64,000 nt of DNA from Amphiscolops sp. MND2022 (Eukaryota), in the NCBI GenBank assembly GCA_964187785.1, contig OZ076409.1, positions 25,670,001-25,734,000 on the forward strand. Reading direction: 5' to 3'. Every line of letters starts with the position of its first letter. Position 1 is the stretch's first letter. The notes beneath the pieces were generated by a model. It was given only the letters and a program-made list of their open reading frames with translations, did no database searches and was not told the DNA's origin. The translations under genes were made by a program, and so were the position numbers. Shown here piece by piece: positions 13,990 through 43,538 of the stretch.

Positions 13990-14900
13990 AGGCGGTCTAG
14001 AATTCACGCTACCTGCCGTCACACCTACATTTTGCCATAGTACTCGGCAAAATGGATGGTGAGATCGGAAAAACAGAGATGATTCGCTGCATAACCGCAC
14101 ATCAGCTGTGAGAAAAGTACGTGTTGCTTCCCCTCCGGGAGATGTATACCGGCCTACCCAGGTTTGGTGGCTATTAGTCACTTCCTTCGATGAAACACCG
14201 CGCGTATCACCCACTACGCTGTTGATGTGCCTAGAGAGCTCACGCCCAGTAGTAGAGGCCGAACACACCCTCTGCTTTCACCTAGCAGATATCTATCGCG
14301 GACAGTTTTTGAGTCAACATTGGTTACAATTAATAGCAACCGATTTCCGTCGACAAGCAAAGATACACGTCCTGGACAAAACAGACCTATACGCCAGGTC
14401 TTGAGGCACTCTCAGTAGTGCATGGCTGATAACGCAACTCAAAACTAGGCCGAATTACTTGCCATGGATAACCTACGCCACCACGGATATTCTACAGGCC
14501 CCGGCACTGTAGTGTTATGTTGTCCCGCGGATTTATTATCCTACTCAGGGACCGCTCGCTACGTTACTCGCGAATATGGACAGGAGGACACATTCCGGTT
14601 AAGATCGGCGGTCGGCACAGCATTGCGCCTGGTTAACTCGCCAACCGCACCCTGGAGCAACGAAATCCTTATTTTGTGCACCAGAGCTTCCAATAGACAC
14701 CTGTTGCGGCACGAAGTCTTACACGCGTGTCGAACCCATTTGACGCACCAGCTTCACTGAAATCGCTTCACACGAATTCACTTTCCCGTTTTTGATCCCG
14801 AACGGTCAATCAATTTGTTACCGGCTTGGTATGCTACGTTACGTGATCACTTTACGGATCAGAATCTAGAAAAGGTCCTCCGTGACCGGGTTTACGTCTC
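13990..14900 (+). pseudogene. Tandem divergent macrodomain-like (OARD1/TARG1-type) region
   Basis: VVLCCPADLLSYSGTARYVTREYG...ILILCTRASNRHLLRHEVLHAC...RIHFPVFDPERSINLLPAWYATLRDHF parallels the TARG1 motif order (HCISxD..GAGIA..F..FG / YYLITK / MPRIG..LD...W); a weaker copy precedes it (14108-14404). Confidence 0.55.
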
Positions 14901-15281
14901 CATAGCATCCATAACGTCCACCGATGTAGGCACCGAAAGAAAACTGTCCCCCAGAACCACAAGGCCAGCGGCCTTCCCTTTTCTCTCGTTTCATCGAAAA
15001 AGAATGCACTCTAGGTTTTTAACAGTAGTGAATAGCCACGGAGTACTTTTTATCGCAATCATGTACTTCTTAGTCTCATGTCCAGTGTGTTTGTCCTGTC
15101 TAGTTTATGTGAGTCGGTAATCAACCATTTTTGTTCTCAATTGCAACTTGCTTTTCAGTTTTGTCCTGTTGCCTCGCCGCCTCTGCGCGGCTCTCCCATA
15201 AGTCACGATATATCCATCCACCATCAACCAAATCTGCCTTTGCCCCCTCACTTATCTTCGGTGCTATGCCAATTATCAAAG

Positions 15282-18200: not shown

Positions 18201-19190
18201 GTCCATTCTCCAGCGGGGTCCTACTTATCAAACAGCGGTAAGAAACTTTACGTGTCTACGCCTAAAATTAACCTATAGAGAGATCAAAGACCGGAAACAT
18301 GTAGAATACAATTTCACGGCAATCATCCGAGCACGTGCGCGGTGCGCTCTCCCCATGCTCATGGAATTCAAACCGGTTGCATGGTTGCACATCCCCCTAG
18401 ATCCGCACACTGGTGCAGTAGATTCTTTTGCAGGCTGGGATGCCCCAGTAGTCTTGCGAATCTTGGCCACAATCATTCAAAGGTTGGGTGGTAGAAAACG
18501 AGGTGAGGCGCCCAGTGGGCTGCACTACCCGTACAATTGCGTTACGTCGCGTATATATTGCAATCGGGCAGAGCCCCGCATCCAAACCACGGCACGGGAA
18601 CCAAACAGAAGCACTCTGCCGATTACTGCCGAAGTCCTTAGCAACCCGCGCGCCGCGTTGGAGATATTTCTCAATTTACACCGCAGACAAAAAGAGCGAG
18701 AGCAATCAATAAGCGAGGACTACGCGGGAGGCTTTCTGACTTTCAAGAGCTTGTTCGTGCAATACGGTCATCAAGAGCTGGCCGATAGCCTACCAGAACT
18801 CCACCAGGGAAGTGCGACTGGCGAGACCGACAAAATGAATGCAACAGCCCTTGGCAGTTCACAGCCGCCACCTTTGAAGTGAGCCCGCCAGATAGGATAA
18901 AGACCCGAATGGAAGATGACCACGAGAAAATGTCCACCGCAATGCGAACCCCCGATGAGTCCATAATGGATGACAATTTCACTTTATCTGGGGCAGCCAC
19001 GCCTGCCCAAGACGAACCCGGCACGGGTATTCTCAAATGGACGCTGCCGACATCGAATCAGAGCTAAACAACCTCCTGACAATCGATGATCCTAGCCCAT
19101 ACTTTTGCATGGTGGCGGTCCCCACCACAAATCTAGAGCCATCGGCTACCAAGTCAATTCAAGATCTGCCACCGGATCTGACTGAGGAAT
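15282..19190 (+). pseudogene. Large extra ORF (broken) with SGNH/GDSL hydrolase-like domain
   Basis: Chain of same-strand ORF fragments; RIAFFGDSTM (GDS at 16610-16618), then VRVMNVPCTSL and ILVYSNVIDHL in SGNH block order. Confidence 0.5.
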
Positions 19191-21777: not shown

Positions 21778-22717
21778 TATGCAACCTAGTTGCCACTCTA
21801 CATTTTTACAGTACATGAAATTTCGACAACCCATACATTTCATTGTATGATCCGTAGTACGAATTGCACAATGAGGTCCGTGATTGTACGATCGTGCTAT
21901 GATCTCACAAGATATGGATTTTAGTGTTGAGAGAATCAACCTGTGATAGTATCATGGATACCCTCAAAGATGAATATTTGGTTTTCATTCACGAGCAATT
22001 TCATTGTGTGTGATAATGCTACTTTCCACAGAATAATTTGTTTGATACAAAGATTTCGTTGCAAGGTCTTGTTTGCAACGCTCATCCGAGAAGTGTTGGA
22101 CAACGTTTGATTTCAGGCTGAAGACAGCTATGGGAGTCAAATTGAAATGATAGAAACGTAAAGGTGAAAATAATGGTAATCTTTCTAATCAAAGGGACTA
22201 AATTTGTGTACTGCGATCTTTTTTTTTCTGGCAGATGCTAAAAATTTGACTTCGATGATGATTTCTTTCATTTCTGTCAAGTTTGCTGACATTAAAATTT
22301 GAATATCTTGACTTATTAATCTACTAAAATTGGCTTTTTTTTTCAACTAAGTTAGTGGAGCCAGTGAAAAAGTCACAGCACAACTCTGCCACACCCACAA
22401 AAATCAATGAATGCGATCAACTATTAGTGGGGTTGGAGATTCAGGACTCCATTCCCTATTTCTCAGTCAACACTGCTCGACCCAATTCATCAAATTTTAG
22501 TTACCAAAATGTTTCGAACTTCGGATTTATACTATTATTTGCTACTTTTGTGAATGGTGCTTTACCAATTGCTAATCAGTGTCTTACTTGAAGTTTCAGT
22601 TTTGTTATTGTATAATGTTCATTATACTTTAGGAAGATTGAATAAACAGAAATTGATGCTAATCGAACCAAGAAAAAAGAAACAAGAAAATGAAACCAAC
22701 ATGTTTTTTTTACTATC

Positions 22718-24356
22718 TGTCGCAGGCTGCCGCCTGCGATGGCAACATTTACACGATTGACCATACGAAGCCAATCGCCCTACCTGGGACGCTCCCATTG
22801 TAAACCAAAACTTTCAAACATTTAGTATTATTTTGAACATGTAATATTGATTGATGAATTGTATTGTTATTTCTTATGTAAAATACATTTGACAGCAAGC
22901 CATACTGACAGGCAGAAAGGAAACGTGTTCAAATGTTTGCCTGCTCAGTATGGCTAGCTAAGCCGCCTATGGTCAATTGGCCAATCAGAGTGCAGTTTGT
23001 AATAGCCATCTTATTACTTATTACGTAACTGTGCTAATAACTATTTAGAATGGACCAAGGCGGCCAACTAACTTTGCCGGCCTTATTGTGCTCTGATGCT
23101 ATACTTGAATGGTATTCAGTAATTACAAATAGGACGAAAGCGGCTATGCGACATAGCCGTCCCTATTCACTGTATTAATTGTCTTGGTGCTATGCAGTAA
23201 ATAAGGCCTATCATGGCCGGTTGGCACGATGAATACTCAAATGCTGTATACTTGCCATATGAAATTGGTATTCCAGTTAATTAGTGGTTTGAAGATGCAA
23301 ATAACCCACCCCATGCAATAAACAGATATATACACTGTTAACATGTAATTGTTGCTTTCTCACATTATGATAGGACCGAATTAGAAAACCCCAACGGTCA
23401 TAAGCCGAATAGGGCCTTCATGAATTGTTGAGCATGTAAACTGTTGCTTGCATGAATTTTACTTGTAAACAATTTGACCCATATGTGGAAGAGACTTGTC
23501 GGGCCTTTTGATCTAGCCGCCCGCACAAGTCTAAAATGATGTCATGTTGCTATTAATAGTTTCACTGTATCTATTTTTAGCTTGTGTGCTATTTTCAGTA
23601 ACGTGACTGACGAAATCTCAGATGTCATGCTAACTTGAGTATAAATACGCCCAAGTTGGCCATAAGACTCAGTTGATTTATGATACGGTTGATATTCAGT
23701 TATTCTTATTCGATTTGTACAAGAATCACTGTAGACCAAGCTCTATATTGTCCACAGGAACAATTCCCATATTTACTCCTGGAAAAACATTTTCAATGCC
23801 TTCTACAAGGAGACAAAAGGCCAAGTCTAGGAAATCAAGAGAATTAGATATGTTGTCCGACTACGGCAATATGGACGTGATGTTAGGTGAGAGAAATTCT
23901 AACTCTATAGAAAGAGAACTCGATAGTTTGATTAACGTCCCCGAGGGACAACAGGACTTTCAGTCCTTTCCGAATAGAGAAAATTCATCTCAAGAGAACG
24001 AAATCAGAGACATTGATAGCAGAAATGAACCAGTTAGGGAAAGTAGGCTAGTTGAGTCTATCAATACACTATCTGGAGAAATGAACGCTAGGATGTCACG
24101 CGAGATGGAAGCTATGATGGACCTAATGCAATCACAGATTAGCAGGGCCATTAGTTCCGCTATAAGCGAGAGGATTATCCCAGAGATACAAAATATGGTA
24201 GAAAATTTGCCTTTGGGTCGACATGGCGTTGAGCCGTGTACGTCCGCGGATGAGGACGGAATCAGAAATGTATGGAAGAACGCAAATACAAATTAACAAA
24301 GAAGGATTCAAGGTCCGCTTGTGATCTGAGAGACCACATGGACGTTAGTCCTTACA
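22718..24356 (+). repeat. 5' LTR of element 2 (1639 bp)
   Basis: TGTCGCAGG...CCTTACA; direct repeat of 37295-38889. Confidence 0.97.
23640..23674 (+). promoter_or_regulatory. LTR core promoter: TATA box plus Inr
   Basis: TATAAAT at 23640 and TCAGTT at 23669 (A 31 nt after the TATA start); gag ATG 125 nt downstream. Confidence 0.7.
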
Positions 24357-24374
24357 TGGTGACAGGAGCTACCG
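24357..24374 (+). promoter_or_regulatory. Primer-binding site
   Basis: TGGTGACAGG... directly after the LTR's terminal CA; absent after the 3' LTR; cognate tRNA not established. Confidence 0.8.
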
Positions 24375-25487
24375 AACTCCAACAGCCGATTCCTGAATTC
24401 CTCACAGGACGAATTCACTCTCAGCCAGACCTCCAAAGACAACAATCCACTCATGATATAACTCTGGATACAACTCTGCCAAGAACAGTACAACTCCGGC
24501 AGAACAGCCACAAGACCCTATCAACCGATTGGCAGATGTCCTGGTAAACCTCCAAAATAAACCACACTCGATGACAATTAGACCAGTCACGACGAACCCC
24601 ATGACATTTGACGGCAAAACAGAGAAATTTGAATTGTTTGAAGATTTTTTTCATACAATGATAAAGATGCAGCCCGCTATGACTGAAGAAATGAAAATAA
24701 ACCATTTTCATTCTCTGCTCAGAAAAGGAGCACTGCAAACTTTCCGAAATATAAACTCCATAAACCTTCAAACATTAGAGGACGTATTGGTTATATTCCG
24801 CAGAAAGTACGTCAAACCTGAGTCCCAGGCCACAGCTAAACACAAATGGCATAGACTCATCTTCGACCCCAACACAATGAAACTACCCGATTTTCTTGAG
24901 CAACTCAACCAGGGTGCCGAGAAAGCCTTTGGGGAAATCGCCAAAAGCATGATCGACAGTCTCCTGTAAGCTAAATTACCCCCAAAACTCAAAAGATCAG
25001 TAAATATGGCTCGACTGGAAAACGGGACCTACGAGGAGATTGTAGCAAATCTGGAAAGAGAACTCGAGTTAAACGCATTAGAAGAATCTGACGACCTACC
25101 CATTGCTACAATGGCTTCGTCGTCCAACAAATCCCGAAATTTACTATCCAATGGCATTGACACCAACAAAAATAACCAATGCTCATACTGCAAGGCAGAG
25201 GACCACTTCTGGAAAAATTGTCCAAAACTGAAAAAGAAGAAAGAATCAGAGGCCAAAGATGGCAAGAGGCCTCAACGACAAACTTACCCAGAATGCCCCA
25301 CCTGCAGCAAAACCAATCATCCAGCAGAGAAATGTTGGCGTGGCGCTGGTGCCCACCTTCGTCCAAAAAGAAATCGACAAGACTCCTCCAAAGATACGGA
25401 GCCCTCTGAAGACGAAGGCACTCGCACCAAGAATGAAAAATCCACAACATCCTCATCAGGCCAATCGAATTCCAAAAAACCTGAATC

Positions 25488-25494
25488 AAAAAAC
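25488..25494 (+). promoter_or_regulatory. -1 ribosomal frameshift slippery site A AAA AAC
   Basis: Directly before the gag stop; the -1 frame is open and in phase with the protease once the MITE is removed. Confidence 0.8.
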
Positions 25495-28400
25495 TAATTT
25501 TGCCACGACTCCAAATCTCTGATCAAATGTCGATACGACAATATGTCATATCAGACCCAGCTACTATCGCCTACAAGCAATCACAAAAGGACATCACAGG
25601 GACCCCATCGACTGTCTGGCAGCAGCACATTATAAGACACAACTTTCACGAACCTCAAAAGTTTATTAAATATCCTTAAATGCTCCACAAGGGAATTTTC
25701 ACTGGGAAAATCGTATACGGAATCCTATTTTTAATAAAATTTCAAGCGCATTAGGATTATTATTACAAAGTATCAAAATTACCTATTTTGGTTATTTGTA
25801 AAACTTATAAAATGGGGGAAACGTTTTAGAGTCCTTAGTATACAGTTTATAAGGAATCCTGAAAACAGTTAGATATAAGGAAACTTGATGCATTTCCCAT
25901 GTATTAACAAGTGGAAAAAGTATCAGTAATACTTATACTTCAATGCAAATTGGCTTATAAGGAATACTTATGCATTTTAGACACGTAAATTTACGCGCAC
26001 TTTGAAAGTTGTGTCTTGTAATGCAGATGGTGGAAGCCTGTACTCAAACTCAATACATTATCCACAGTGACCACCCATACTTATATTGACGTAACAACCT
26101 CACTAAAGACTCAGAAACCCAATTCCGACCCTTACAAACTGTCGAAGACTACAACCCCCAATACTACGACCTCGAGTAAGACAAAGACCCGTACTGGGAT
26201 GAAGATTTATACGATAAACACAATTTACAATTTCGGAATGATGACTACCCGCCAACAGACGATGAGGATGACCCTGACATAGTAGACACCATACTGTCCC
26301 GGGCACTTATCGAACCGTGGCAACCAAATTTTGATGCAATCAAAGATCAGCCACATGCAGAAGAGACACAGACCACACCTGGCCTCCTCGACGAGACAGC
26401 CTTCATACATGTCCTTGTAACTAAAGAGGGAGAACCAGCGTACATACCATTATCCACAAACCTCGGACTCAAATATAAAAAACGGATGCTATATTTCCCG
26501 ATGGACTTTGGGGAACTAACCATAGACGGCCTCATAGAGACTGGAGCTCACTCCAGTGCAATACCGGAAGCAGACCTCAGGAAAATACGCCTCTTGGCGC
26601 CCCAATCCATAGTCAAAGAGGGACCTGCCCCGACGTTTCAAATTATGGTCGCAAACGGACAATTGGAAACCCCAAAGAGCACTGTTGAACTCAAGTTCGA
26701 AGTCGGAGATATCGAATTCCATGAAATATTTATAGTAATGGAAAAACTGACTGGCCCTATCATAGGACTGATGTTCCTCCAGAGGAATCATACGGTACTG
26801 GACATGCGACAAGGCATACTCAATCTCCCATATTTCTCGATGCAACTCAAAACGGCTGACCATAAATATTCTAATGTACTGGAACCAATACTTAACCCAG
26901 ACGATATCACAATACCACCCAATGACCGTATCTTAGTAGAGATCAAATCCCAAATCTACAACGAAAATACGGTCACAGGAGTGCTACAGCCCAGTGATCT
27001 CCTCCATGAAGAAGGAGACATCACATTCTGTGCCGCGATAGTCACATTGACTAGTGGAAATGTCAACGTTCAAATCAACAATTTCACGGACCAACCGTAT
27101 AAGCTTAGAAAAGGGACTACACATAGCAAACTTTTCTGTACTAACACCGGAACAGATGAAACACGTCAAACCAATTGACCCGGTGTCCACATGGCATCTC
27201 CTCAATGAAAATGAAGAGGATGCGATCTACTATGTCAGTAGTCTCCTCAAGGCTAATCGGAACAATGATCAATATGAACAGTACTGGTTTCCTGCGCCAG
27301 AAACCCAGGGGACGAAGATTCCCATACCCCCATCCAACGATCCAACGACGAATTCTTCAAGAATTACGAAACCTCCAAGAAGCTGAACTATTGAACCCTC
27401 AAAATGATGATGAGTCACGCCGCAAATTCCTTAGCAATTTTGACTGGAGAGACTCCATGCTGCAACAACACGAAATCAAAAAGATCGAATCGCATTTAGT
27501 CGAATACCATGACATATTCGCACGATACAGATTTGACATCGAAATGAATGAAGAATTCACGGTCAAACTGACCCCTAAGGACGATTCGCCCGCTTACAGC
27601 CAAAGTCTTCCAACTCCAGTCAATTTAAAAGAGGACATACTCGTCGAACTGGCCCTCTTACACAAACATGGCATAGTAACTACACTGCCATTTTCGAAAT
27701 ACGCCAGTCCCAAATTCGCACAGAAAAGCCGAATGGGAAGCTAAGACTTCTAGTCGACCTGAGGAAAATTAATAACCTCATTTCGGATGACTATATAAAC
27801 AACAATCATCCGGTTAGTACCCTAACGGACGCTGCACAACATATGGCAGGAAAGAAACTATTCTGTAAACTTGATTGTTCACAGGCATATCACTGCCTAC
27901 CAATGGCGGACCAAAGGTCCGTTGAGATGCTTGCGTTCAACTTTGCAAGCCGCACCTTTGCGTATCGACGACTTGCTCAGGGCCTTAGCAGGGCATTATC
28001 AGCATTTTCAAGCTTTATGAGGGAATACCTCGATAAAGTTATCAAAGCTGATCAATGTGCCCAATATGTCGACGACATTGGCATAGCCGCCAATGATGCG
28101 GATCATCTCATAAAAAATTTGAAAGCAACCTTTGAGTGCATTAGGCATGCTGGCCTTAAACTGACAATGCACAAATGCCACTTCGGGGCAACGGAGATCA
28201 TTTTCTTGGGGAGAACAATTACTCCGGCGGGAGTCAAACCACAAAAGGAGCGAATAACAAACTTCCTAGAAAAAACCAAATTCCCCAAATCTAAAAAGGC
28301 TCTACAAAGATATCTTGGTTTCCTCAATTATTACAGGAACTATATCCCAAGATTATCTGAAAAATTAGCTCCTTTCTTTCAACTTCTCAAAAAAGACGAA

Positions 28401-31133
28401 AAAGTCCTGGTGACCACAGAACTAATACAACAGTTCAATGAAATCAATCGGGACCTCGACAAATGTAGCCAATTGGCCCTGAAGCAACCTTTGCCAAACA
28501 AGCAACTGGTCTTGATGACAGACGCTAGTTTCACAGCGGCCGGCTACGCCATACTTACCGAAGACGACCCAAACCAGAAATATTCATCTGTCAAAAAATC
28601 ATACGCTCCAATTGCATATGGCTCAAAAACTTTTACGCCATCGCAACTCAAAATGTCCATATACGCCAAGGAATTCTTAGCAATTTATTACGCATTCGAA
28701 GAATTTGGACATATTTTCTGGGGAGCCCCTAAACCGATTACCATCCTCACGGACAACAAATCGGTCACGAGATTCTTCCAGACGAAGATAATCCCTCCAA
28801 CACTCTGGAATGCATGTGACTATGTAATACAATTCAATTTTGTCATAGCACATATACCATGGAAAAACAACACAGCAGCTGACTACTTATCTCGCATAGA
28901 AACGGACCCCAGAGAGAAACTAGTCCTTAAAATCCGAAAAGACATAGAGACTAAGCCCATCGAGGTCAATGTCCAATCAGCAGGCGTAGCTGAAGAGGAA
29001 CAGGTTTTCTTCACGGAGCAAGATGATGAGACAGAAGCTCAAATTTGGGAGCGTAAAAAACAAAGCCGAACTAACCCAATCGACCAAGAAGGCGTAATTC
29101 AAATTGACGCAATATCTGAAAATCTAGTAGATGAAATTACGAACTTTACCCAAAAAATGCGCAGAACGAACCAAGTTTTACTTGAACAATCCAAAGACCC
29201 TATACTGCGCCAACTCAAAGCCAAAATTCAAAACGAAGACTATTCTGAAGAACTACTCCAGCAAGATATCCGATACAAACACTACCTTAACAACTTGGAC
29301 CGAATAGTCCTTGAAGACGAAATAGTCACACGACAATATTATGATTAAACTGGACAAGTCAAGTATCACCAGGTTCTCTTAACAAAACACCTTTTGACAG
29401 AATTGTTACAGGCCCTACACGGAACGGCGCACAAACACCCTGGCATATCGAAAATGTTACAAGAAATCCGACAGAAATATTACTACCCTGGTATAGCAAA
29501 ACATGCTAAAAAATGGGTAGAAGGATGTGTAGCTTGCGCAAAAGATAAAAGGGTTCCAAACAACACGATCACACCTGAATTGCTTAACTTGCCAGAATGG
29601 GACCTTGGACCAGAGGATGCAATGCAAATCGATTTACTCCCAAACCTACCAACAAGCGGGGGTTACCAAACAGTGATGACAGCAATAGAAGTCTTTTCAA
29701 GATATCTGTTTGCCTACCCGCTAGTTGAGGCAACAGCCTCCAACACGGCAAAGGTCTTAATAGACATCATGACAAAGCACTCATATTTGCCAACTACGAT
29801 CATCACCGACAAGGGAACCGCTTTTACATCAAAAATTATTGCAGAGATAACGCAAGTATTGGGATAAACATTAAAATGTGCGACGACTAAACATCCACAA
29901 ACAATTGGCAAACTCGAGAGAACTCACGCCTCATTGAAGACAAATTTGAAACTAACCTCAGGGGAATATCGCCGTCAATGGCACAAATATTTGCCGCTAG
30001 CAGTGCTGAATTATAACACAACTTATCACTCCAGCATCGGTTGTGAACCGAGCAAGGTCTTTCACGGAAGAATTCCCTATATTGTTCTTGACCATAAACT
30101 TGGAAATAATCTTAATAAGGATTTCCTCCCGACTACTGAATTTGGTGAAGAGTTACAACAGAGAACGAAAGTTCTCATTGACAAAACGAAGCATAACATT
30201 ATGCAGTCCTACTTGAAATATAAGGAGTACTATGACCGAAAGGCCAAAGCAGCTCCTCTCAGTGAACAAGATTTTTGTTTTATCCTACAGCCTAAAGCGG
30301 ATAATCAAGGATCAAAAATACCATTCAGAGAATATCGCTGGATCGGTCCTTATTGAATTGAAAAGGTATTACCTAACGACAATTACATTGTCCGCCGGTT
30401 AAATACGAATAAAACACAGATATTACACCGAATCCGCCTGAAAAAATTTGTTCCAAACACGCCCTTAGAGGACAATTAAGCCAAAGAGAAATTGCAACCA
30501 GATGATGAAATAATCATACCGCAAGATGATTTATACACCATCTCATGGGAAGCAGATTTTGACTACCATGTCTTCGATCCGAGACGAGACGATAATACGG
30601 ACGAAGAATCGCAAACACCAGACAGCGATGCTGGTGTCACGACTAGTGATTACGTCATTTATGACAACGCTGATGACAACGCGGTAAGGCCGGGGACGGC
30701 CACCAGCCGAGAAGGCACAATTACACGAGACGCAAATGACGTCACCGAATTGAATGAACGAACCAAAATGAATGAAAATGAAGCGGGACCGAGTACGGCC
30801 GCTAGCCGAGACACACCTATAGTGCATGACGAACATGACGTTAACAAGAATGCTGCGCGAGAAGAACAAAGCAGCGAAACAGGAAGGCCGAGAACGGCCA
30901 CTAGCCGAAATAGCCACAATACACCACCTAGTTCAGAAAAGAACGTGAATGACGTCACAAATGAATTAGAAGGCGAGAAAAACTCTCTTAACGAGGGGGA
31001 TGATATTACCGTGCCCGGAATATCGAACAAAAAAGCAAATGAAAAAACTGATGAAAACTCTAGCCCTAGAGGGGGGAAATACAACCTTCGACCTAACCCC
31101 AATCCCAACTATACTGATGAATACAGATACTAG
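25494..31133 (+). pseudogene. pol: pol (protease, dUTPase-like, RT, RNase H, integrase), disrupted
   Basis: LIETGA (protease site D>E), QYVDD (RT), MTDAS/KEFLA/TDNKS/ADYLSR (RNase H), LH..HKHPG..CVAC, QIDLL, ITDKG, KLERTH (integrase), WIGPY; several stops and frameshifts. Confidence 0.95.
25628..26023. mobile_element. CACTA/EnSpm-like MITE inserted in pol
   Basis: 21-bp TIRs CATTA(T/C)AAGACACAACTTTCA; 2-bp TSD CA; removal restores WQQQMVEA in the pol frame. Confidence 0.9.
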
Positions 31134-31308
31134 TCAGAAATGATAAATTATGTCCCTATTTATGTTCTTGCCTAATAAGGCATGTTTTTGACTGGGACTA
31201 CTCTGACTTCTTTGACTCAAAAGAAACTAACTATATAAATATGAAAACAAAACAGAACTGAAATTTACAACTCAAAAGTTTAAAATGGCGAATGTACACT
31301 ATGTACAT

Positions 31309-34300
31309 TTAACTTTTAGAGCTTCCTTCTCGCAATTCTTGCACTGTCTTTGACAACTCATCAGCAGGGAGATCGCCGAAATAAGCAAGTTTTTGTGCTT
31401 GGCCGGCAGCCCATTTAATCTTCCGAATAGCAGTAGTGGACACAGAGGACGAGCGTGACGCAGTACTGATACCGACAACAGGAACACTTTTCAAGCTCTT
31501 AAAAGCACTGGTGAGATTCTTTAAGAATTCGGCCCGGCCAAACACGTCAGCGTGGACCCAAGGGTCACCAGCGAAGTGTCTGGAGCTGAACTGTCCCTCT
31601 AACTCACGATACTGGGCCAAGGCGGACTCAGTAGTGCAATTGGCAATTGCTTCTGGGCAGTTTGACAAATACGACTGTGCGGGCAAAATTATTGCAGAAA
31701 GTCGACTACTGGAGCTAGAAGTATCTACATCATGGAATTTAATGGTCGGAAGTTCCTGATGGGCCTCAGTGATACAAAGACAGCATAACCGGAAGAGGTG
31801 GAAAAGCCTTGAACGGCTACGAAACAATGGCATAACGATAAGGAAGTCCAACATATCAACTATTGTGTTGGGAGCATTTTTGACTGTGCCACAAGTATTT
31901 CGGAGAAGATCGATGAACTCGAAATACTCTTCTTGGTAGTCACTCTTAACGGCTAGATCCACCCAACCACGGAGGTGGAAGCTATCAAACAGGGCGTTGA
32001 AGCAGAAGGTAGCCTGTTCCAAAGGAAGAGAGAGGAACACGTGTGGGTCGAAGCAGCCCATACCGTGTATAATATCAGCGGTGAAATGGATGTCCTCCAA
32101 CAAAGCTTCCAATAGAGAGACAATGTAAGCGCGAGCTTCTGTCCCAACTTTTTCCTTCTCCCTAGCGACCATTTCTTCTAGACTGGCAGTGGGAGCCTTG
32201 TCAGCAGGGAAACGCTTCACTTTAGCTTGGCAAGCAGCATCAAGGTCAACGGTAAATTTGAGTTGATTCAAAAAATCGCGGCAAGATAGCTGTCTCAGAT
32301 CGTCAAGGCACAGATGGAGCAACTTTGTCCACTCAATGTCTCCAGGGATGTACTTGGGCAGAATGGCTCGGTGGCACAATTTCCTCACGTAACGGCAATA
32401 CTGTCCGTAAACGAACAGCGCTGAGTCACGTCGCTATGCCAGACTGCGCTCAAAGCATTTGGTATCTAAACAAACGAAGTCAAAATTGAGTCCTAATATG
32501 TGATAATCTAGTGAGGTCTCCTACCTTCTCAATCACTAATGACAATCATGATCAAATTCCAACATTAAAGGAAAAGAGACAATTAGGGCTCAGCTTTACA
32601 ATGAAGAAAAATGACTAACAATCACGGACTAGAAGGGACAAAAGTTCTAATTTAGCGGTGAACAAATCGTCCTGGATGATCTCCCACTCCAGACTTTGTG
32701 GCTAAAAAGAAAAATTATATGAGAACTGGGTCGACAAGAAGGATTACTTCACATGAGGGTGTTTGGCAAATTAAATGGACAAACAGAAGACTTGTACCTT
32801 GTTTCTCACTCCTTGCATCACTTGGGTTGGTGCCAATTTCGTCAAGTAGTCGTGAATGGTAGACCAATTCTTTATGAGTTCAGTGCAAATTGTCGGGACC
32901 TTTTTGAGGTCCAGGTCACAAGCTGCGGATGCCTGCAAAAGAATAATCCTCATAGTCATGCTATAAGTCAGGAAGACAAAGGACCTATGGGCTGCAATGA
33001 AAATCAGAGAAACGATGGTTACATGAGGTAATGTCAACAGAAATTTAAGTTGGACCCACCTTACACAACTCTGGACATTGTGGGGCCCATGGCTGACTTG
33101 GACTACCGCGGAGAAAGACGACTAAGTATTTCAGCTGCGAGAACATATCAATGCGGCCAAAGACATGGGTAGTCTGAAGGGCATTTGGGTGCATCAGGTC
33201 AGGCAGAGAAAAGGCTTCAAAGCGGAAGGGATATTGGATTCCGTGCTCATATAGTTTGGAAGATTCAAGGGCCTGGAACGCCATAGAGGAACACCCGGAG
33301 ATGCTGACTAAATTCGGCTTGGAGGAAACGCAAGACAGCAAGCACGATATGGCAGATAAACAGCAATCGGGGTACGCATCAGACTGCAGATGTCGGTGAA
33401 GCTCTACACGGACGAGTGAGTCCCCCCTCCAGAAGCGGATTGACATACACCGATAGACACCAGCTGTGGTGAATTCAATGGAATACATCCCAGTGGCAAT
33501 GACTTGACTGGAGATGTCAGCTAGCCCCCGCATGAAAATGTGGTGGAAGATGTTCTGAAATGAAAACGGATAATTAAAGAAGTTTGAGACCCACCGACCA
33601 ACTGGGCCTATATTTAGATATGAACTACAGAACTACTTACGGTGAGAGTGGCAGGTCCCCAATCGAATGAGGAGAAAAGGGCTTGATGGTTGGTGAACAC
33701 ACCGACCTTTGTCCATAAATTCTGCAAGAGCGAGAGGTTGCCATCTTGAGGCACGAATGTTCCAATTAGAGAAATGAGGGTGCTAGTTCGCAAATCGCTG
33801 GGATTGGTGATTCCCCCTATGCTGGCCATGTAGTCGTCGTAAAATGGATAACGGCCTCCCGCATCGATGAGTGGAGCGTCTATGAAACGGGGTTTCTCCC
33901 TTTCCAGCTCGAAAGGAGTAAGGACATAACCGTCCTTCCCCCTAACTTGATGTGTGACGATTCCAGTATTACTGTCTGTCTCTTGCAAATGAACATAACG
34001 CCATTTTTGATCTTTCCGCAGATGCCCTTCTTTCTGGTAATGGCGCAGTATCTCCCTCGCCCCTTTGGAGTAGATGGACACGTTAGTCTTACACAACATA
34101 CAGTAGAACTTGAATTTGTTGTGAATCGGGTCGACGGGTCCAGTCACAAAGGTCCGGGTCCATTGGATGCTCTTGAAGTACGCATCTTTCATAACCTTCC
34201 CTGGCTTGCTCAATAATTTCATTCTCTTCCGGGGAGGGCTACGTGGCAATGTCTCCATATCTTTATTCCGGGCTAAAGCAGATAAAGGTTGGTAGTCGGT

Positions 34301-35358
34301 GCTGCTGTACCCACTACCCGATGTAGGAGTAGCGTTATCAGCTCGAGACGTGCTGGTACGAATCCCCAAGCTTGTTACGGGGGTGAGTGTTAGAGGATCT
34401 GTTTCGCTAACTACTTCAGTGCCAGAAATCGACCCAAGCTGGTAAGGATCCTCGTCAGAGTTTATGGCACCACTCGTATAGCCATCACTCACATTTCCTT
34501 TTTGGCTGTCTTCCTCCCCTGAACTCTCAGCAAGATGGCGGGCTGGGGTAGGACACCTTCGGGGCAATTTCCTCTTTTTGTCCTGAGAAGTCCCCGTTGC
34601 GGCATGTAAAGGTAGGGATTTCATCTAATGATATGAAGAAAGAGCGCTTTCGTCGGCAACAGTTCTGAGGATAGCGTGCATCTGCTCTTGATTGAACGCA
34701 ACGGTAGAGTGCCCAACTGGTAATCGGATTGGTGTTGCGGCAGTAAAATATTTACGGATGATGGTTCGTCCTTTGGCTGACAACTGTCTATCGCTGGATT
34801 CAAGCATAGCCCGGTAAGCTTCTTGCTCCTCATCACTGTTCCCAGCCTCTAAGTGAAATTCCCCTTCAAGGTCCGGAAAATCCTCAGGATTCAATGTAAC
34901 GCTTCGGGAAACAGGAGGGAAAGCAGCAACTCCAGAGCTGTTCAATAACTCCTCAGCATCAGTGGTGTCACCATAAAGTGGTGCAGCCCCTTCTTGGGAG
35001 GCAATCTCTTCTTTGTCATCAGGCCCTGTGGGGCTAATTGGCCGACTAGGAGTTATAACGATGGCTTCTGAGACCGAGACCTTCTGGAAAGCAAAATCCA
35101 TGGTGGACATTCGGGGCACTGCACCTTGTTGAGCAGGGAGGATTGAAACTGATTCCCGCTCAGGCAGGTTCATCTCTGCGACGGTTCTTTCGATGAAAGC
35201 AGTAACGCTCTCATTAGTGGATCGACTACAATTGGAAGTCTGAGAAGACGGACGAGGGGGTCAGTAGTATTCGCGGGCCCTATGTGCTCAAGGTTATCTT
35301 CGTTGGAATTGTTGATTGTGGGAACAGTGGATTCTGGCAAAGCCTTCGTAGACGACAT
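31309..35358 (-). pseudogene. Antisense intron-containing gene: BED-like zinc finger plus degenerate hAT-transposase-like body
   Basis: Exons 35358-33641, 33554-33060, 32932-32798, 32701-32620, 32465-31309 joined in frame by GT-AG introns; FYCMLCKTNVSIYSKGAREILRHYQKEGH; stops at 34625-34627 and 32434-32436 and a frameshift near 35170. Start codon uncertain. Confidence 0.8.
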
Positions 35359-36542
35359 GCCTAAGCAGAAGGAAATAAATTTTTGCGGGCAACTTCCTGA
35401 AAACGTGTCCATATGTACCGCAGTAAAACCTTCCGGAAGTGAAAAGAAAGCGATATTGAAATCATTTGATGAAAAGGACAGGAAGTACCTGAACGAGAGG
35501 AAGAGCCTTGATCAAGCTCATTTCCGTTCAAAATTAAAAAAGACCAGATAGCTCACCTGAATTAATTGTCCAATTGAAGATTGAGCAGAGATGGGAGATC
35601 GTTCCGATTGAGATGATTTGTTACTGATTTTCCTAAAGGAGCTGGTGCGGGACGGTAGAATGCCCAGGTGGGACCGTATCGGTAAGGGTGTAAAAATGTG
35701 GCTTTCGTAGTCAAGCCTGATTCCAAAGTGAGAACTGCTGTTGACCCAAAGGGCAATCGATAAACCAGACCAGGAATGGTGAAAACGAATTAAAGGGCCC
35801 TCTAATGAATTAAAGATAAGAAGAAACTAAAACTGACTGTGATACTGAGTATACAATGGATAAATTCGAACATGGAAATGTAACAATTAATGAGTTGGAA
35901 GAAGATGAGAGTGATTGCAAGAGCAAAGTTGGAGTTCGTGGCAAACTGGATTTGTTGTCAAATATTTTTACAATTTTGAGAATTATTGTATGGATGGAAT
36001 CTGCCAGAGAAATCCACATTAGTTATATTTCGAAACATGCATTTTCATTATTTTGTTATCTTGGTTATTTCATTATTTTTAGTTATTTTATTATTTCCTT
36101 ATTTGGATTATTATTTTTAATTCCGCCATTTTGGAAAGCGGACAGAGTGGGCGATTCCCATTGGCTGTCGCGGCGATGCGCCGCGCGTGGCCTTAAAACT
36201 TCATCACCCTCTCTTAAAATTCTCAAGTTAATATCAAGTGGAGATAAACACTAGACGAAGTCCTTGAAGGTTCTTTGCCGACTTAGGCAAGCTGAAGTTG
36301 ACCGTCGGTCAACAAAGCGGAAGGCGGTCTATATCAAAGAACATCTTGGAAAGTTTAGTCAATGAAACATGATGCGGGAAACAAAAGACCGGGAAAATGT
36401 GAAGCCAAACCATCGAGAAATTGAGAAATGAAAATCGCCATTTGCTTCCTAACTTTCAAACTAAACAGTTGCTCTACTCAAACAAAATTAAAATTGTCCT
36501 ATTGCATTCAAAATTGCAAAAAAGATAATAAAAGATAGATTT

Positions 36543-37380
36543 ATGGCTCAACGATTTCGTGAAGACTTCATTGGCGCAGCGCCCGAGGGCGTAGATATTA
36601 TCTGCCTGTCCAGCGACGAAGAGGAGGGAATGTGTGACCTAAGCATGACTTCGGTGCTAGACCTTCAACTGTCATCGGAAGACGAAGAAGAAATAGATGA
36701 CGAAATCATGATGATGGCCCAGTGTGTCGAGATGGAATTATCATCGCCCATCCCAGTGCCTGGTCCATCCACAGCGCTGAAAATTAGAAACGAGGCCCCC
36801 CGATATAACCCACCAAGGTACGGGACCTCCGGGGCGAGTTTTGCAACAAGGCCTACTCTTGACCAATCCTTCTTCTCATTAGGAAAAGGAAACGACCCAA
36901 TACGGCGAGACGACCGAGTGCGCAATAATCACCCTATCAAGCTGTGTAGGGAAATCATTCCCATGGTGGACACTCCCATGTCGCCCCCACCAGAAGAGAA
37001 AGGACCAACTTACGACACCTATTCAGCGGACGGTCAGGGCGAGATTACCCAGCAGTCATTGGACGCAGTTGCAAACCATTTCCAAGGAATGGAGATTGAG
37101 ACGAACAATCCTATGGCAAATTACTCAGTTGCGTGATATGTGGGAAATCTACATTACAAATCCAGAGTGAAGCAGTCACAGACTACTTGCGCAAGACGGC
37201 CATTTTGGGCGAATCAGCAGATCAACTAGAAGCGCGCAAAAGAGCTTTTTTCAAGGAATGCAAGTGGGCACTTTCTTATTACTACCAGGGGGAGTGTGGC
37301 AGGCTGCCGCCTGCGATGGCAACATTTACACGATTGACCATACGAAGCCAATCGCCCTACCTGGGACGCTCCCATTGTAA
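36543..37380 (+). pseudogene. Accessory sense ORF overlapping the PPT and U3
   Basis: 197-aa open frame MAQRFRED..., continued after frameshifts near 37128 (CVICGK) and 37250 as QGMQVGTFLLLPGGVWQAAACDG...TLPL*, stop 37378-37380 inside the LTR. Confidence 0.7.
37287..37294 (+). promoter_or_regulatory. Polypurine tract
   Basis: AGGGGGAG immediately before the TG of the 3' LTR. Confidence 0.85.
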
Positions 37381-38889
37381 ACCAAAACTTTCAAACATTT
37401 AGTATTATTTTGAACATGTAATATTGATTGATGAATTGTATTGTTATTTCTTATGTAAAATACATTTGACAGCAAGCCATACTGACAGGCAGAAAGGAAA
37501 CGTGTTCAAATGTTTGCCTGCTCAGTATGGCTAGCTAAGCCGCCTATGGTCAATTGGCCAATCAGAGTGCAGTTTGTAATAGCCATCTTATTACTTATTA
37601 CGTAACTGTGCTAATAACTATTTAGAATGGACCAAGGCGGCCAACTAACTTTGCCGGCCTTATTGTGCTCTGATGCTATACTTGAATGGTATTCAGTAAT
37701 TACAAATAGGACGAAAGCGGCTATGCGACATAGCCGTCCCTATTCACTGTATTAATTGTCTTGGTGCTATGCAGTAAATAAGGCCTATCATGGCCGGTTG
37801 GCACGATGAATACTCAAATGCTGTATACTTGCCATATGAAATTGGTATTCCAGTTAATTAGTGGTTTGAAGATGCAAATAACCCACCCCATGCAATAAAC
37901 AGATATATACACTGTTAACATGTAATTGTTGCTTTCTCACATTATGATGGGACCGAATTAGAAAACCCCAACGGCCATAAGCCGAATAGGGCCTTCATGA
38001 ATTGTTGAGCATGTAAACTGTTGCTTGCATGAATTTTACTTGTAAACAATTTGACCCATATGTGGAAGAGACTTGTCGGGCCTTTTGATCTAGCCGCCCG
38101 CACAAGTCTAAAATGATGTCATGTTGCTATTAATAGTTTCACTGTATCTATTTTTAGCTTGTGTGCTATTTTTAGTAACGTGACTGACGAAATCTCAGAT
38201 GTCATGCTAACTTGAGTATAAATACGCCCAAGTTGGCCATAAGACTCAGTTGATTTATGATACGGTTGATATTCAGTTACTCTTATGCGATTTGTACAAG
38301 AATCACTGTAGACCAAGCTCTATATTGTCCACAGGAACAATTCACATATTTACTCCTGGAAAAACATTTTCAATGCCTTCTACAAGGAGACAAAAGGCCA
38401 AGTCTAGGAAATCAAGAGAATTAGATATGTTGTCCGACTACGGCAATATGGACGTGATGTTAGGTGAGAGAAATTCTAACTCTATAGAAAGAGAACTCGA
38501 TAGTTTGATTAACGTCCCCGAGGGACAACAGGACTTTCAGTCCTTTCCGAATAGAGAAAATTCATCTCAAGAGAACGAAATCAGAGACATTGATAGCAGA
38601 AATGAACCAGTTAGGGAAAGTAGGCTAGTTGAGTCTATCAATACACTATCTGGAGAAATGCAATCACAGATTAGCAGGGCCATTAGTTCCGCTATAAGCG
38701 AGAGGATTATCCCAGAGATACAAAATATGGTAGAAAATTTGCCTTTGGGTCGACATGGCGTTGAGCCGTGTACGTCCGCGGATGAGGACGGAATCAGAAA
38801 TGTATGGAAGAACGCAAATACGAAATTAACAAAGAAGGATTCAAGGTCCGCTTGCGATCTGAGAGACCACATGGACGTTAGTCCTTACA
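37295..38889 (+). repeat. 3' LTR of element 2 (1595 bp)
   Basis: Copy of the 5' LTR with a 45-bp deletion, one extra base and roughly 8 substitutions counted by eye. Confidence 0.97.
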
Positions 38890-38995
38890 CTATCACATCG
38901 CGGATTAAAGTAATAGACGAAGTCCTGCGAAGAATGATATTTTAATCAGCTAATAATTACTTTTATCGCAGCTACTAGAATAAAAAGGTATTTAA

Positions 38996-40835: not shown

Positions 40836-42160
40836 TACTAAAATAGTCAAGTAACTAAATAGTGAAGTGACTATAGTCAAGTGATGGAGCGTGGAGATTT
40901 GGCAGAATTTGGAAAAAAAACGCAACACAGATGATGATTTTCCTCCCCAATGAAAAGGTGGGTCGGAAAATAACAACTAGTTCGAACTAGTTGCTGATCA
41001 GCATTTCTTCGTTTTTGACGTTTCCCTTCAATTTTTGAGCGATCAATTCGATTTTCTTTTCAGTTATTTGAGCTTTCACAGTTGAAAGCATTACAACGAA
41101 ATGTAGCTCTGAGTATTTTGACATTCTTTTGTGTAGCTATCGGGTTTTTGCAATTCGAACAATTCTTGTGATTTCAATTTATAGCTCAAAAAGTATTGAC
41201 AATTATTGAAAATCTGAAACACAGCCGGAGTGGGCGGGGGGGGGGAGTTTTTTTCGTCAAATTCAGTTCACTACATAGAAACCATTCGAGACCTTTTTCT
41301 CTTCTAATCGCAAAATATGGTCAGTAAAATTGAACTTTCCATTATTTCAAAAGTTTTTATGTCAACATTTTCCTCATTTGATAGCAATCAGCGCCTCTCA
41401 TTGCAACTATTATTTGTCATTAATGAAAATCACAAGGTTTCAATCGATAATCCTAATTTGAATGGTTTGAAATTGGAAGAAATGGGGCTACCAGTTACCT
41501 AAAATACACAATTGATTTTCTATTTAGTTTTTATTCGATTATGATTTCAAATTATTGTTGAGATTGGCTATTTTAAGTCGGAGAATCTTAATCTTTAAAG
41601 GATCCAGATATGTACTCAAACGTGTGACACTCTTTCAATTAGATAAAACGTTTCAACAATCACTAAAAATTGATTTGGCATATAATCATTTAGGTTGGCT
41701 TATGTCGCTATATCATCTTTTAACATCAACCATCGCCAAATTTGAGTCTTATTTCGGGCAGGTTAATTGCGCCACTTCAATCAACTTATTATTTCTAACC
41801 GACTAGGAAGGGCAACAGTTTCAAATACCGGTTAAATATTAAACGTTCACTTACAGGTTTTTGAAAAATTGCGCAATTATAGTCAATTTGAGTCTAGCTA
41901 GGTATGCCTCAAGTAATTAATTAATGATCACTAGCAGATATTTAGTTTGAAATGGGAAAAAAAGATATCATTCAAACACTCAGCATCATAATCAACAACA
42001 ATCAAAACTTCGTCCGGAATCATTCAAACAATAATTAGATACTTCAAAAACATTTCGCAACTGTTGGATAACTGATACCAATACCTTGTAATACTTCCAA
42101 ACACATCGATTGACCTCCTAGTATTTATATCTCGATCCATAAACGCACTCATAAATTGTA

Positions 42161-43015
42161 ATGGCACCCAACCACGATAGTTTCACGGTTTCCGACGACG
42201 AAGCATTTTCCTATAACCAGTTTCCACTGGAGTTGGTCATCGTGGGTCTCAGTTTGGATATAGAACCCAGAAGGCACCCTTTCCCAACTCCTGGCTTGCA
42301 TTCTTCCAGCCCCTGGTACTCGAACACTTCTTTTCCTCCCATCGAATACCCCCAGCCGGTTTCTCCGTCGATCTGGGATAATGACGTCCAGTTGTTCAGT
42401 GAGGATCCGGATATATCTGGAATTGATGAGGATGGTCTGGATTATGACTCAGATGCCGAAACAGAGCCTGGAAGTGATCCCATTTATATCGACAATGGCG
42501 ACAGAGGAGTAACGTACGTTGCGCAATTCGGTAGAAATTATAGTCTGTATTTTGAAATGACTCCCATTAACCCAAATGAGAGGTACCCGCGTATTAACAG
42601 AAGACGCCCATTGTGGGGTGACAGATTTGACCTGTCGGAAGATAAGGAGAACATCGAACACGAAGACGACAGAGATACTTATGTCTTCGAACACAGCCCC
42701 ATTCTGATCAGAAGACCATTTGAACCCAATTGGACACGAACTCACAATCTGCCAGCTGCCAGCCCAAATATTCAAATGTCGTCAACTGTGAGAGCTTGTT
42801 TGTTTCATGACGCCTCTTCGGTTCTGAATGAGAGGCAAATCTCCGAGGAGTTTGGGTATTCCGCAGATGGTTTTGACTTGCAAAGTTCCCAAAATGAAGA
42901 AAACCCAAATAACCAGATACCCCGGGCCGACTTTTGTGTCAATTTCCAGCTAGGTGAATGCTGTTTTGGCGACAGATGTTCTTTTGCTCACGATGCGACC
43001 CGATTTCCGTTTTGA
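42161..43015 (+). CDS. Single-exon 284-aa acidic/Pro-rich protein with C-terminal CCCH zinc finger
   Basis: Intact ATG-TGA ORF, GC-richer than its flanks; CVNFQLGECCFGDRCSFAH fits C-x7-C-x5-C-x3-H. Confidence 0.65.
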   Translation: MAPNHDSFTVSDDEAFSYNQFPLELVIVGLSLDIEPRRHPFPTPGLHSSSPWYSNTSFPPIEYPQPVSPSIWDNDVQLFSEDPDISGIDEDGLDYDSDAETEPGSDPIYIDNGDRGVTYVAQFGRNYSLYFEMTPINPNERYPRINRRRPLWGDRFDLSEDKENIEHEDDRDTYVFEHSPILIRRPFEPNWTRTHNLPAASPNIQMSSTVRACLFHDASSVLNERQISEEFGYSADGFDLQSSQNEENPNNQIPRADFCVNFQLGECCFGDRCSFAHDATRFPF

Positions 43016-43538
43016 GTGCTTGTGTCATTGTATTAGTTTTCACTTTTAATCACTCCAGGAATTTTCCTAACCTGACCGACGACGTGACTCATTCTTTAAT
43101 TTGTGAGATAATAACTGTCATCGTGCTAATTCGATAAACTGCGCTTAACGTTCAATAGTCATCAAAAATTCAAAAAAAATCAAAATCAAAAAAATCAAAA
43201 CGCAAAAAAATTATTTTTTACTTATTCACTGAATTTGGAGGGTTTCCATTATGGAAACTGAGCCCTCTTTTCTCTATTGCATGTACACATGCCGTAAATT
43301 ATAATTGGGACCATGTGTCTTGTTTCCCCCAGGTACACCTTGTTTCGAATCCCCCCAACACAGAAGAATGTTATTCTTGAACAAAACTATTTCAATAAAA
43401 AAGGGTATTATTGAATGTGAATACTTCGAGGATTGTCTAGACACTGTTTGACACTTCCAGGCTCTATTGACACTTCCAGCAAAAAACGACCCTAAGTTTT
43501 TGACAATACTGTCCAAACTAGCAAAAATTCACGTCTGG

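Follow-up and report, generated by a model that had tools for sequence, protein, structure and literature searches.

A 16-kb Ty3/gypsy-type element occupies positions 22718–38889 of the window, the 64,000-nt stretch of DNA analysed here, and carries between pol and its 3′ LTR a spliced antisense gene and a divergent sense ORF that are almost certainly functional and present throughout the lineage. The best explanation, which we hold with a little better than even confidence, is that the antisense gene descends from a hAT transposase that is now catalytically dead, that the sense gene carries a predicted SUMO-interacting motif (SIM), and that both would encode nuclear regulators sustaining transcription of the element against host silencing.

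A decayed member of a Ty3/gypsy lineage with recent activity

Structural hallmarks of Ty3/gypsy are present in the element (LTRs with TG..CA ends, a 5-bp TSD in the flanks, PBS, PPT and the pol order PR-RT-RH-IN), and the two LTRs are 99.5% alike, differing by 8 mismatches, one 45-nt indel and one 1-nt indel.

22713–22717, plus strand: left copy of the TSD CTATC (right copy at 38890–38894)
22718–24356, plus strand: 5′ LTR, 1639 nt, the last 561 nt coding for the gag N-terminus
23796–25497, plus strand: gag, with a product of ~570 aa where the frame is open, a weak DUF1759 match and, as read from the sequence, two CCHC knuckles
24357–24368, plus strand: PBS, 12 nt that can pair with the CCA-containing 3′ end of a host tRNA-Leu(CAG), a tRNA called as such at 1/4 loci
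25485–31133, plus strand: pol, with protease, a weak dUTPase-like domain, RT, RNase H and integrase
25488–25497, plus strand: putative −1 slippery heptamer A-AAA-AAC and gag stop
25628–26023, strand undefined: MITE-like insertion in pol, 396 bp, with a 19/20 terminal inverted repeat (TIR) and a 2-bp duplication, CA
37287–37294, plus strand: polypurine tract (PPT)
37295–38889, plus strand: 3′ LTR, 1595 nt

The gag ATG at 23796 lies 561 nt inside the 5′ LTR, and the sense ORF crosses the PPT and ends 86 nt into the 3′ LTR, bearing out an earlier proposal that both LTR boundaries are overlapped by coding frames. The slippery A-AAA-AAC with its stop recurs in the other copies compared, and the sister family has T-TTA-AAC plus a stop at the same site; no hairpin downstream of the heptamer was strong (−4 to −14 kcal/mol). 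A gag-like frame in the 3′ LTR (38211–38945) was rejected as a gene, as it is the beginning of gag duplicated with the LTR. In comparisons of the RT with PDB sequences, Ty3 RT ties with two other RT groups (E~1e-28), and the best 120 of its 310 database relatives are unnamed proteins.

The window copy is decayed in all four genes, a state absent from the sequence-only reading of this DNA. Gag carries one stop and two frameshifts; pol six stops, three frameshifts and the 396-bp TIR insertion; the antisense gene two stops and one frameshift; and the sense ORF two frameshifts. The element belongs, as a degraded copy, to a lineage that was active recently and is very abundant (thousands of first-look candidates) and young (LTR pairs 99.7–100% alike in several copies). 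Nested insertions are frequent.

Conservation, selection and modular exchange of the accessory genes

The arrangement of LTR, gag, −1 frameshift and pol, followed by an antisense spliced gene and a divergent sense ORF, had been read from this single copy; it proved real, with its coordinates confirmed, and recurs in 43/43 copies chosen by similarity of the accessory region. Selecting loci by integrase instead placed the antisense exon downstream of pol in 44 of 45, a near-universal presence. Sister family B, with RT 76% and accessory proteins only ~22% identical to those of the window's own family A, shares the layout and also the small antisense exons of 135 and 82 nt, identical in length and phase.

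Both accessory genes are under purifying selection. Pairwise dN/dS was 0.02–0.17 where dS could be estimated and gave no sign of positive selection; dS was saturated elsewhere. In the copies aligned for this analysis the proposed frames contained no stops, and every alternative frame did. Selection at the protein level with saturated dS indicates that the protein, and not the RNA alone, matters.

Gag-pol, the antisense gene and the sense ORF with U3 recombine as three separate modules. Pairs of elements with RTs 99.4% identical differed in the antisense last exon (58.6% identity in one pair, 81.7% in another), as did a pair with RTs 97.5% identical (66.7%), and in a converse pair the last exons were 98.1% identical, the RTs 86.1% and the sense ORFs 65.2%. 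The alignments mutually rejected each other's tree (deltaL 1307 and 467).

Structure of the antisense gene

The antisense gene consists of five coding exons and an upstream donor at 35557, and encodes a protein of ~1,195 aa.

35361–35556, minus strand: intron 1, 77–79% conserved, versus 63–64% in the next exon
33641–35360, minus strand: first coding exon, ATG at 35358; one frameshift and one stop in the window copy
33060–33554, minus strand: 165-codon exon, RNase-H-like pattern by eye
32798–32932, minus strand: 135-nt exon, length equal in 11/11 family-A copies and family B
32620–32701, minus strand: 82-nt exon, length likewise equal in 11/11 family-A copies and family B
31309–32465, minus strand: last exon of 385 codons, helical throughout and predicted to correspond to the hAT insertion/C-terminal region; one stop in the window copy
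31159–31164, minus strand: position of the poly(A) signal, presumably used, 25 nt from the pol stop

Across 11 copies, donors were GT at 43/44 sites and acceptors AG at 42/44, together 85/88 in agreement with GT-AG. The poly(A) signal reads AATAAA in five of the six copies compared and CATAAA in the window copy. Intron 1 contains three motifs that we take to be ETS-like. The first coding exon specifies an acidic low-complexity N-terminus, a basic NLS-like stretch and a CxxC..H..H zinc finger; the finger is conserved in families A and B, and its Pfam zinc-finger match falls below the cut-off.

Origin of the antisense protein

The antisense protein probably derives from a hAT transposase without a conserved DDE triad. 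We call this origin likely on three weak, concordant leads, which fall in the expected domain order. In the Atlas, the finger region matched zf-C2H2_12 and zf-BED clusters (0.88–0.89) and the last exon hAT-family clusters (0.87–0.89), scores that for named families stay below 0.9. When the last-exon model (pLDDT 83) was compared with 48,161 chains, the sole long match among the 50 best rows was Hermes 8edg_A, aligning model residues 1–272 with Hermes 367–609 over 176 residues at an rmsd of 6.1 and a Z of 5.0, a value within the tool's reported background for helical models and pertaining to the last exon, the only one modelled. The protein resembles hAT transposases (Hermes 8edg; Buster/Charlie/GTF2IRD2-like) in its order of zinc finger, RNase-H-like and helical parts and in this weak structural match; it differs in lacking a conserved DDE, CxxH and RW, TIRs and a significant sequence match. 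Mapping by eye with the DDE triad, CxxH and RW motifs revealed no acidic residue invariant at equivalent sites across families, and none was retained by eye at the expected catalytic sites of the 165-codon exon.

Descent from a host gene or from some other family, with the gene equally functional, is the less probable source, though a serious one. It accords with the sequence-profile tests, every one of which was negative: Pfam returned no hAT family for the antisense protein; and comparison with host hATs, whether by HMM, by hhalign or pairwise, stayed at chance level. PDB sequence searches with two profiles gave no significant match. A search of the host with the PF14291 and PF18658 profiles was likewise without a match, which does not imply their absence from the host. 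Foldseek with the last-exon model returned nothing at E<0.001, and a second VIA look nothing significant; a structure model built from four sequences was discarded (pLDDT 46). The best 150 of 842 relatives are also unnamed, exon-sized proteins, a word-index homologue search of the last exon against longer proteins found no match, and the same search with the 165-codon exon found two unnamed family-B proteins. Against this source, two separate parts of the protein and one structure search each indicate hAT, in the right order. The host genome carries canonical hATs and, with nested insertions so frequent, the region might be a nested hAT transposon, autonomous or hitch-hiking, with no role for the gypsy element. 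We regard this as highly improbable, given that inverted repeats flanking the gene (best arms 11–14 nt) were within shuffles in 6/6 copies, that the position is the same in families 22% identical, that purifying selection is strong without a conserved DDE, and that all 43 matches examined sat inside gypsy elements.

The sense ORF and the intergenic region

35557–36509, strand undefined: non-coding region between the head-to-head genes, with non-coding exon 1 and conserved blocks near 35920–36030
36543–37380, plus strand: sense accessory ORF, coding for ~279 aa where it is open, with a C-terminal CxxCGK domain and a SIM-like IDIICLSSDEEE type motif

The sense ORF is predicted to hold a SUMO-interacting motif. 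A hydrophobic core with a Ser/acidic tail, SIM-like under the definition that we assume, was seen by eye near the N-terminus in 7/7 aligned sense ORFs and matched in 2/7 by the strict pattern; complex prediction of this region with two exon products of a host SUMO gene scored 0.01, uninformative either way. Neither accessory gene contains a TM-like segment (maximum 19-residue hydropathy 1.0–1.5 in 7/7 segments), and no env with signal peptide and TM anchor was found, nor any Pfam env match, in agreement with the original description of both as not env-like. A possible 10-codon extension of the sense ORF starts from an ATT at 36513.

The intergenic region 35557–36509 is likely a bidirectional promoter. 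It contains motifs that we take to be YY1-like (~36125) and CCAAT-like (~36159), which in the window copy showed no enrichment relative to shuffled sequence. The gene arrangement would fit at least three transcription units, as had been suggested before; alternatively, the sense ORF may be expressed by a spliced subgenomic RNA from the 5′ LTR. A frame with a hydrophobic stretch at 35820–36251 was rejected as a gene, the young subfamily having no long open frame there.

Proposed mechanism and alternative functions

In the proposed scenario, an ancestor would have captured a hAT element in reverse orientation, with loss of the terminal repeats and catalytic residues. So oriented, introns and poly(A) signal would go unrecognised on the genomic RNA and hence pass intact through reverse transcription; the lineage shows how a retroelement can retain an intron-containing gene over long times. 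One promoter between the head-to-head genes would drive both, the antisense mRNA ending at about the pol stop. The zinc-finger protein would bind short motifs in the element's non-coding DNA, the SIM protein might engage SUMO-dependent silencing complexes, and cassettes would be reassorted by template switching between co-packaged genomes. That the accessory proteins have a pro-element transcriptional or anti-silencing role we regard as an even call. The fully specified version, in which the captured transposase is a sequence-specific anti-silencing factor acting with a SUMO-pathway antagonist from one bidirectional promoter, with cassettes traded between backbones by recombination, as a VANC-like system in an animal LTR retrotransposon, is offered as less likely than not. 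If true, it would trace an antisense accessory gene back to a DNA transposon and reveal a VANC-like system in an LTR retrotransposon.

Candidate targets come from family B: 4/4 elements counted have motif arrays in U3, in intron 5 and in the intergenic region. The strict motif count was 21–25 in family-B elements (n = 4) versus 0–3 in family-A elements (n = 6), and in family A no motif was common to the non-coding regions above the null (0/6 elements). Antisense types combine freely with differing U3 types, evidence against a strict VANC-type coevolution of protein and motif.

Three other functions would fit some of these observations. The antisense protein or RNA could act as a repressor, either HBZ-like or by giving rise to dsRNA, through which the element limits its own copy number: transcription converging on pol would give dsRNA with the genomic RNA, DNA-binding proteins can repress as well as activate, and such a role has been raised for plant antisense ORFs (PMC7264820). 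The selection on the protein shows that RNA cannot be the whole of it, and the abundance and youth of the lineage also speak against restraint; we consider this unlikely. Slightly less likely still is an action in integration, through nuclear import, tethering of the integration complex or target-site choice. The NLS-like stretch, the zinc finger and the predicted transposase-like scaffold would suit it, and it too has been proposed for plant antisense ORFs (PMC7264820), but integrases 99.5% identical accompany antisense exons only 59–82% identical, so that no tight coevolution of integrase and partner is apparent, and the family-B arrays lie inside the element. Finally, two head-to-head genes in nearly every copy, in many divergent types, might make the element addictive by acting as a toxin-antidote or incompatibility pair; this is very improbable, since the genes reassort independently (sense ORFs 65% alike occur with the same antisense type, and conversely), which a cognate pair should not tolerate.

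Comparison with known systems

An antisense gene between pol and the 3′ LTR is an already known kind of gene, with plant and fungal precedents nearer than HTLV. The suggestion that the whole combination was undescribed for an invertebrate Ty3/gypsy lineage holds in part: the antisense gene is precedented in plant Retand/Grande/RIRE2 and fungal Boty, and a literature search, mainly of open papers, found no animal gypsy element of such layout and no report of a hAT transposase captured antisense in a gypsy LTR element, though a prior description may exist. Complex retroviruses have an antisense gene (HBZ of HTLV-1) and 3′ genes that overlap U3 (nef/sag/bel). The likeness to them drawn earlier is an analogy of position only, an antisense gene plus a 3′ ORF running into U3: the window element has no env and no homology to them, and its antisense promoter is predicted at an internal site rather than in the 3′ LTR. 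HTLV antisense genes are cited in PMC11963269.

In Retand, Grande and RIRE2, of the Tat group of Ty3/gypsy, the stretch separating pol from the 3′ LTR holds antisense ORFs such as Grande gene23 and TRP28 (PMC11963269, PMC7264820). These elements share with the window lineage a long pol-to-3′ LTR region, an antisense ORF conserved in nearly all copies, its own upstream promoter (shown for Grande, predicted here) and a predicted nuclear DNA-binding role. The window lineage is distinguished by five coding exons and ~1,195 aa, a candidate DNA-transposon origin, a divergent sense ORF entering U3, module swapping and a gag start inside the LTR, and Pfam found no TRP28 (PF04195) or PMD domain in it. 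Beyond plants, brtn of Boty/BcGypsy1 in Botrytis is an accessory gene in antisense orientation that likewise follows pol and precedes the 3′ LTR (PMC7264820; bioRxiv 2021.04.13.439636); the resemblance drawn here is one of layout, and no second divergent gene is mentioned for those fungal elements in the text consulted. PMC7264820 and PMC11963269 state origin and function of gypsy antisense accessory ORFs as unknown. The present lineage offers a candidate origin, a disabled hAT transposase; it also has many natural types of cassette carried by near-identical backbones and, in its sister family, a candidate DNA motif, making the function of an antisense accessory gene directly testable.

For VANC, encoded by VANDAL Mutator-like plant DNA transposons, binding and demethylation have been demonstrated (PMC5735166, PMC6719617), and a 2019 review calls it perhaps the most convincing transposon-encoded silencing suppressor (PMC6719617). 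VANC21 targets are short motifs in tandem in introns and in intergenic and terminal non-coding regions, and the family-B arrays, accompanying an element-encoded accessory protein, are distributed likewise (PMC5735166). The window's family A differs in having no arrays, and its element is a retroelement whose protein is only predicted to bind. Among animals, bdelloid gypsy ORF3s (PMC5408684) and planarian Burro (PMC6431247) have env, GDSL, DEDDy or polyprotein domains as their extras, and no spliced antisense gene appears in the descriptions consulted; they resemble the window lineage in being large gypsy elements of animals, in having extra coding capacity other than env, and in a dUTPase-like domain that separates PR from RT.

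Structure and state of the element

The four-gene layout proposed from the sequence was borne out, the LTRs, a gag start inside the LTR, a slippery site and both accessory genes all being located within one feature:

22718-38889, plus strand: gypsy element with LTRs and target duplication

The element is bordered on both sides by a CTATC duplication, 8 substitutions, one 45-nt and one 1-nt indel separate its LTRs (1639 and 1595 nt), and its PBS matches host tRNA-Leu(CAG) over 12 nt. The pol domains identified with Pfam follow the gypsy order (PR, weak dUTPase, RT, RH, IN), and gag ends with a slippery heptamer and a stop, an arrangement shared by the other copies listed. Coding frames overlap both LTR boundaries, as had been supposed: gag starts at 23796, 561 nt within the 5′ LTR, and the last codons of the sense ORF lie in U3 both in this family (family A) and in its sister (family B). 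When scored against the open frames of other natural copies, all four genes of the window copy were broken, gag by 1 stop and 2 frameshifts, pol by 6 stops and 3 frameshifts as well as a TIR insertion of 396 bp, the antisense gene by 2 stops and 1 frameshift, and the sense ORF by 2 frameshifts.

The pol insertion (25628-26023) is MITE-like: its terminal inverted repeat matches at 19/20 positions, and a 2-bp duplication accompanies it. A long inverted repeat seen in the U3 sequence (~22897-22955 and ~37474-37532) could form a hairpin. The genomic stretch G000:C8 carries, from about 35.588 Mb, a large tandem array with 3′ ends of the tRNA-Leu type, the type of the primer; 880 pattern matches to such ends were found genome-wide.

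The accessory region across the lineage

Relatives were sought in the window's own genome (1.07 Gb, 1929 contigs). The last antisense exon (31309..32465, minus strand) matched at 110 of 110 scored places, from 7,246 first-look candidates, with identity down to 51% and mostly open frames. Family B, reached via a nested element, matched at all 138 scored places and has the identical four-gene layout; its RT is 76% identical to that of family A and its accessory proteins about 22%. The sequence-only reading had allowed that the accessory region might be missing from the family. Two antisense exons and then the sense ORF, in that order, were present in 43/43 elements picked by accessory similarity and, in an independent test, an antisense exon lay directly after pol in 44 of 45 integrase-chosen loci (the top 25 plus 20 hand-picked lower down a list of 150), the sole exception being interrupted by an LTR end. 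The accessory layout is a property of the whole lineage and no one-off. LTR pairs were 99.7-100% alike in several copies, indicating recent movement of the lineage. A profile search returned 842 clusters at E<=0.001, and the 10 looked up were unnamed ENA records. In some family members (L026 with L006, L057, L059) other retroelements break the sequence, among them a family-B element within a family-A element.

Antisense ORFs situated after pol and ahead of the 3′ LTR, where the window's antisense gene lies, are known in plants and Botrytis (PMC7264820; PMC11963269); these sources report no similarity to other transposons and call origin and function unknown. No animal gypsy element with this layout was found in the literature searched (outside Repbase, GyDB, most subscription papers and supplements), in keeping with the sequence-only reading, by which the combination is not known to be described for an invertebrate Ty3/gypsy lineage. 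The initial interpretation stands in part: the layout, its lineage-wide occurrence and the non-env accessory genes held; antisense ORFs at this position were already known, and the likeness to complex retroviruses is an analogy of position. The antisense accessory gene is of a known kind, and it is the four-gene combination that was not found described in animal gypsy elements.

Coding properties of the accessory genes

Alignments of the antisense gene showed wobble-type conservation in exons (63-73% identity) and gapped, diverged introns (26-50% for introns 2-5). Across 11 family-A copies donors were GT in 43/44 and acceptors AG in 42/44 cases, and the two small exons measured 135 and 82 nt in every copy, with the same lengths and phases in family B. 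The coding exons total, by arithmetic, about 1,195 codons; pairwise dN/dS was 0.02-0.12 where dS could be estimated, dS being saturated elsewhere, and stops were present in the alternative frames. In 5 of 6 copies the minus strand carries an AATAAA at a distance of 25 nt from the pol stop. Introns oriented backward to the genomic RNA escape splicing and are kept through retrotransposition, which would explain why the antisense introns survive.

The family-A sense ORF encodes about 279 aa and its family-B counterpart 340-350 aa, with dN/dS at 0.07-0.17. Neither a Pfam family nor a TM segment turned up in it, in agreement with its having been judged not env-like. Common to both families are a C-terminal CxxCGK domain and, at the N-terminus, a hydrophobic core leading into Ser/acidic residues, a pattern that we take to resemble a SUMO-interacting motif (putative SIM). 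Eleven basic codons ahead of the first ATG (36510-36542) are conserved with codon-like variation; this stretch starts at ATT with no AG upstream, suggesting a putative non-AUG start at ATT.

Origin of the antisense protein

Atlas neighbors of the last exon included hAT clusters (0.87-0.89), and those of the finger region included clusters of the zf-C2H2_12 and zf-BED types (0.88-0.89). A structure model of the last exon (123 sequences, pLDDT 83) retrieved Hermes transposase as third match among 48,161 chains (Z 5.0, 176 residues, rmsd 6.1), the only long match among the best 50. These three leads, each weak alone, concordantly point to hAT and speak against a non-hAT origin, an alternative favored by the Pfam, HMM, hhalign and pairwise tests, in which homology to host hATs stayed at chance, and by Foldseek, which found no match to the model at E<0.001. 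By eye, the 165-codon exon (33060..33554) follows the order helix-strand-strand-strand-helix-strand, as in the hAT core; Thr or Gln occupies the expected first-Asp position, and at the expected catalytic sites no acidic residue is invariant across the families. A hAT origin is the reading we consider fairly probable, and a working transposase very improbable. The possibility that the antisense gene is a passenger transposon is opposed by the TIR search, which found none flanking it. The genome also holds a host hAT (L098), presumably Tip100-like, which lies in two frames and has recognisable catalytic motifs.

Non-coding motifs, module exchange and possible function

Conservation is higher in intron 1 than in the exon next to it. 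Motifs that we label ETS-like occur 3-5 times in the intergenic stretch of 6/6 family-A copies, against about 0.5 expected; shuffles equalled this in 0-7 of 300 cases in family A, whose copies are related, and family B was weaker (6-156 of 300). Two blocks at 35920-36030, highly conserved across family-A types otherwise sharing little, are possible binding sites or RNA structure. In 4/4 family-B elements, arrays of one short motif occupy three non-coding places and no others, namely U3, intron 5 and the intergenic region (z 7.6-10.6 in the two elements tested, where null maxima were 3.4-4.0), for example in the element L066:

3856-4073: family-B tandem motif array
7488-7679: family-B tandem motif array

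VANC21 is reported to bind such arrays in introns and in the intergenic and terminal parts of the element that encodes it (PMC5735166). Family A showed no such arrayed motif.

Copy pairs combined RT identities of 99.4%, 99.4% and 97.5% with last-exon identities of 58.6%, 81.7% and 66.7%, respectively; in another pair the last exon was 98.1% identical but RT 86.1%, the sense ORF 65.2% and U3 57.7%. RT and antisense alignments of 10 copies rejected each other's tree (deltaL 467 and 1307; 2,000 replicates, fewer than the program advises). These contrasts indicate three traveling modules, gag-pol, the antisense gene, and the sense ORF with U3, exchanged, most simply, by template switching.

We lean slightly toward the two accessory genes encoding nuclear regulators that favor the element. 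In this reading, a zinc-finger protein built on a dead-transposase scaffold would bind the element's non-coding DNA, the SIM protein would engage SUMO-dependent silencing, and a shared internal promoter would drive both genes. Alternatively, an accessory product could be a self-repressor, the proteins could help integration, or the two genes could form an addiction pair. That antisense and U3 types reassort freely in family A argues against strict cognate pairing and, together with the lack of motif arrays there, weakens the anti-silencing reading for the window's family.

Neighboring sequence

A GC-rich (50%) stretch at ~12400-19000 holds broken sense-strand frames, the first integrase C-terminus-like by eye and the later ones without Pfam match; it may be a further retroelement whose extra ORFs differ. 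Nested near-identical repeats spaced about 3.0 and 7.8 kb occupy ~42100-56100, beside a 286-aa frame in which a weak CCCH finger was seen.
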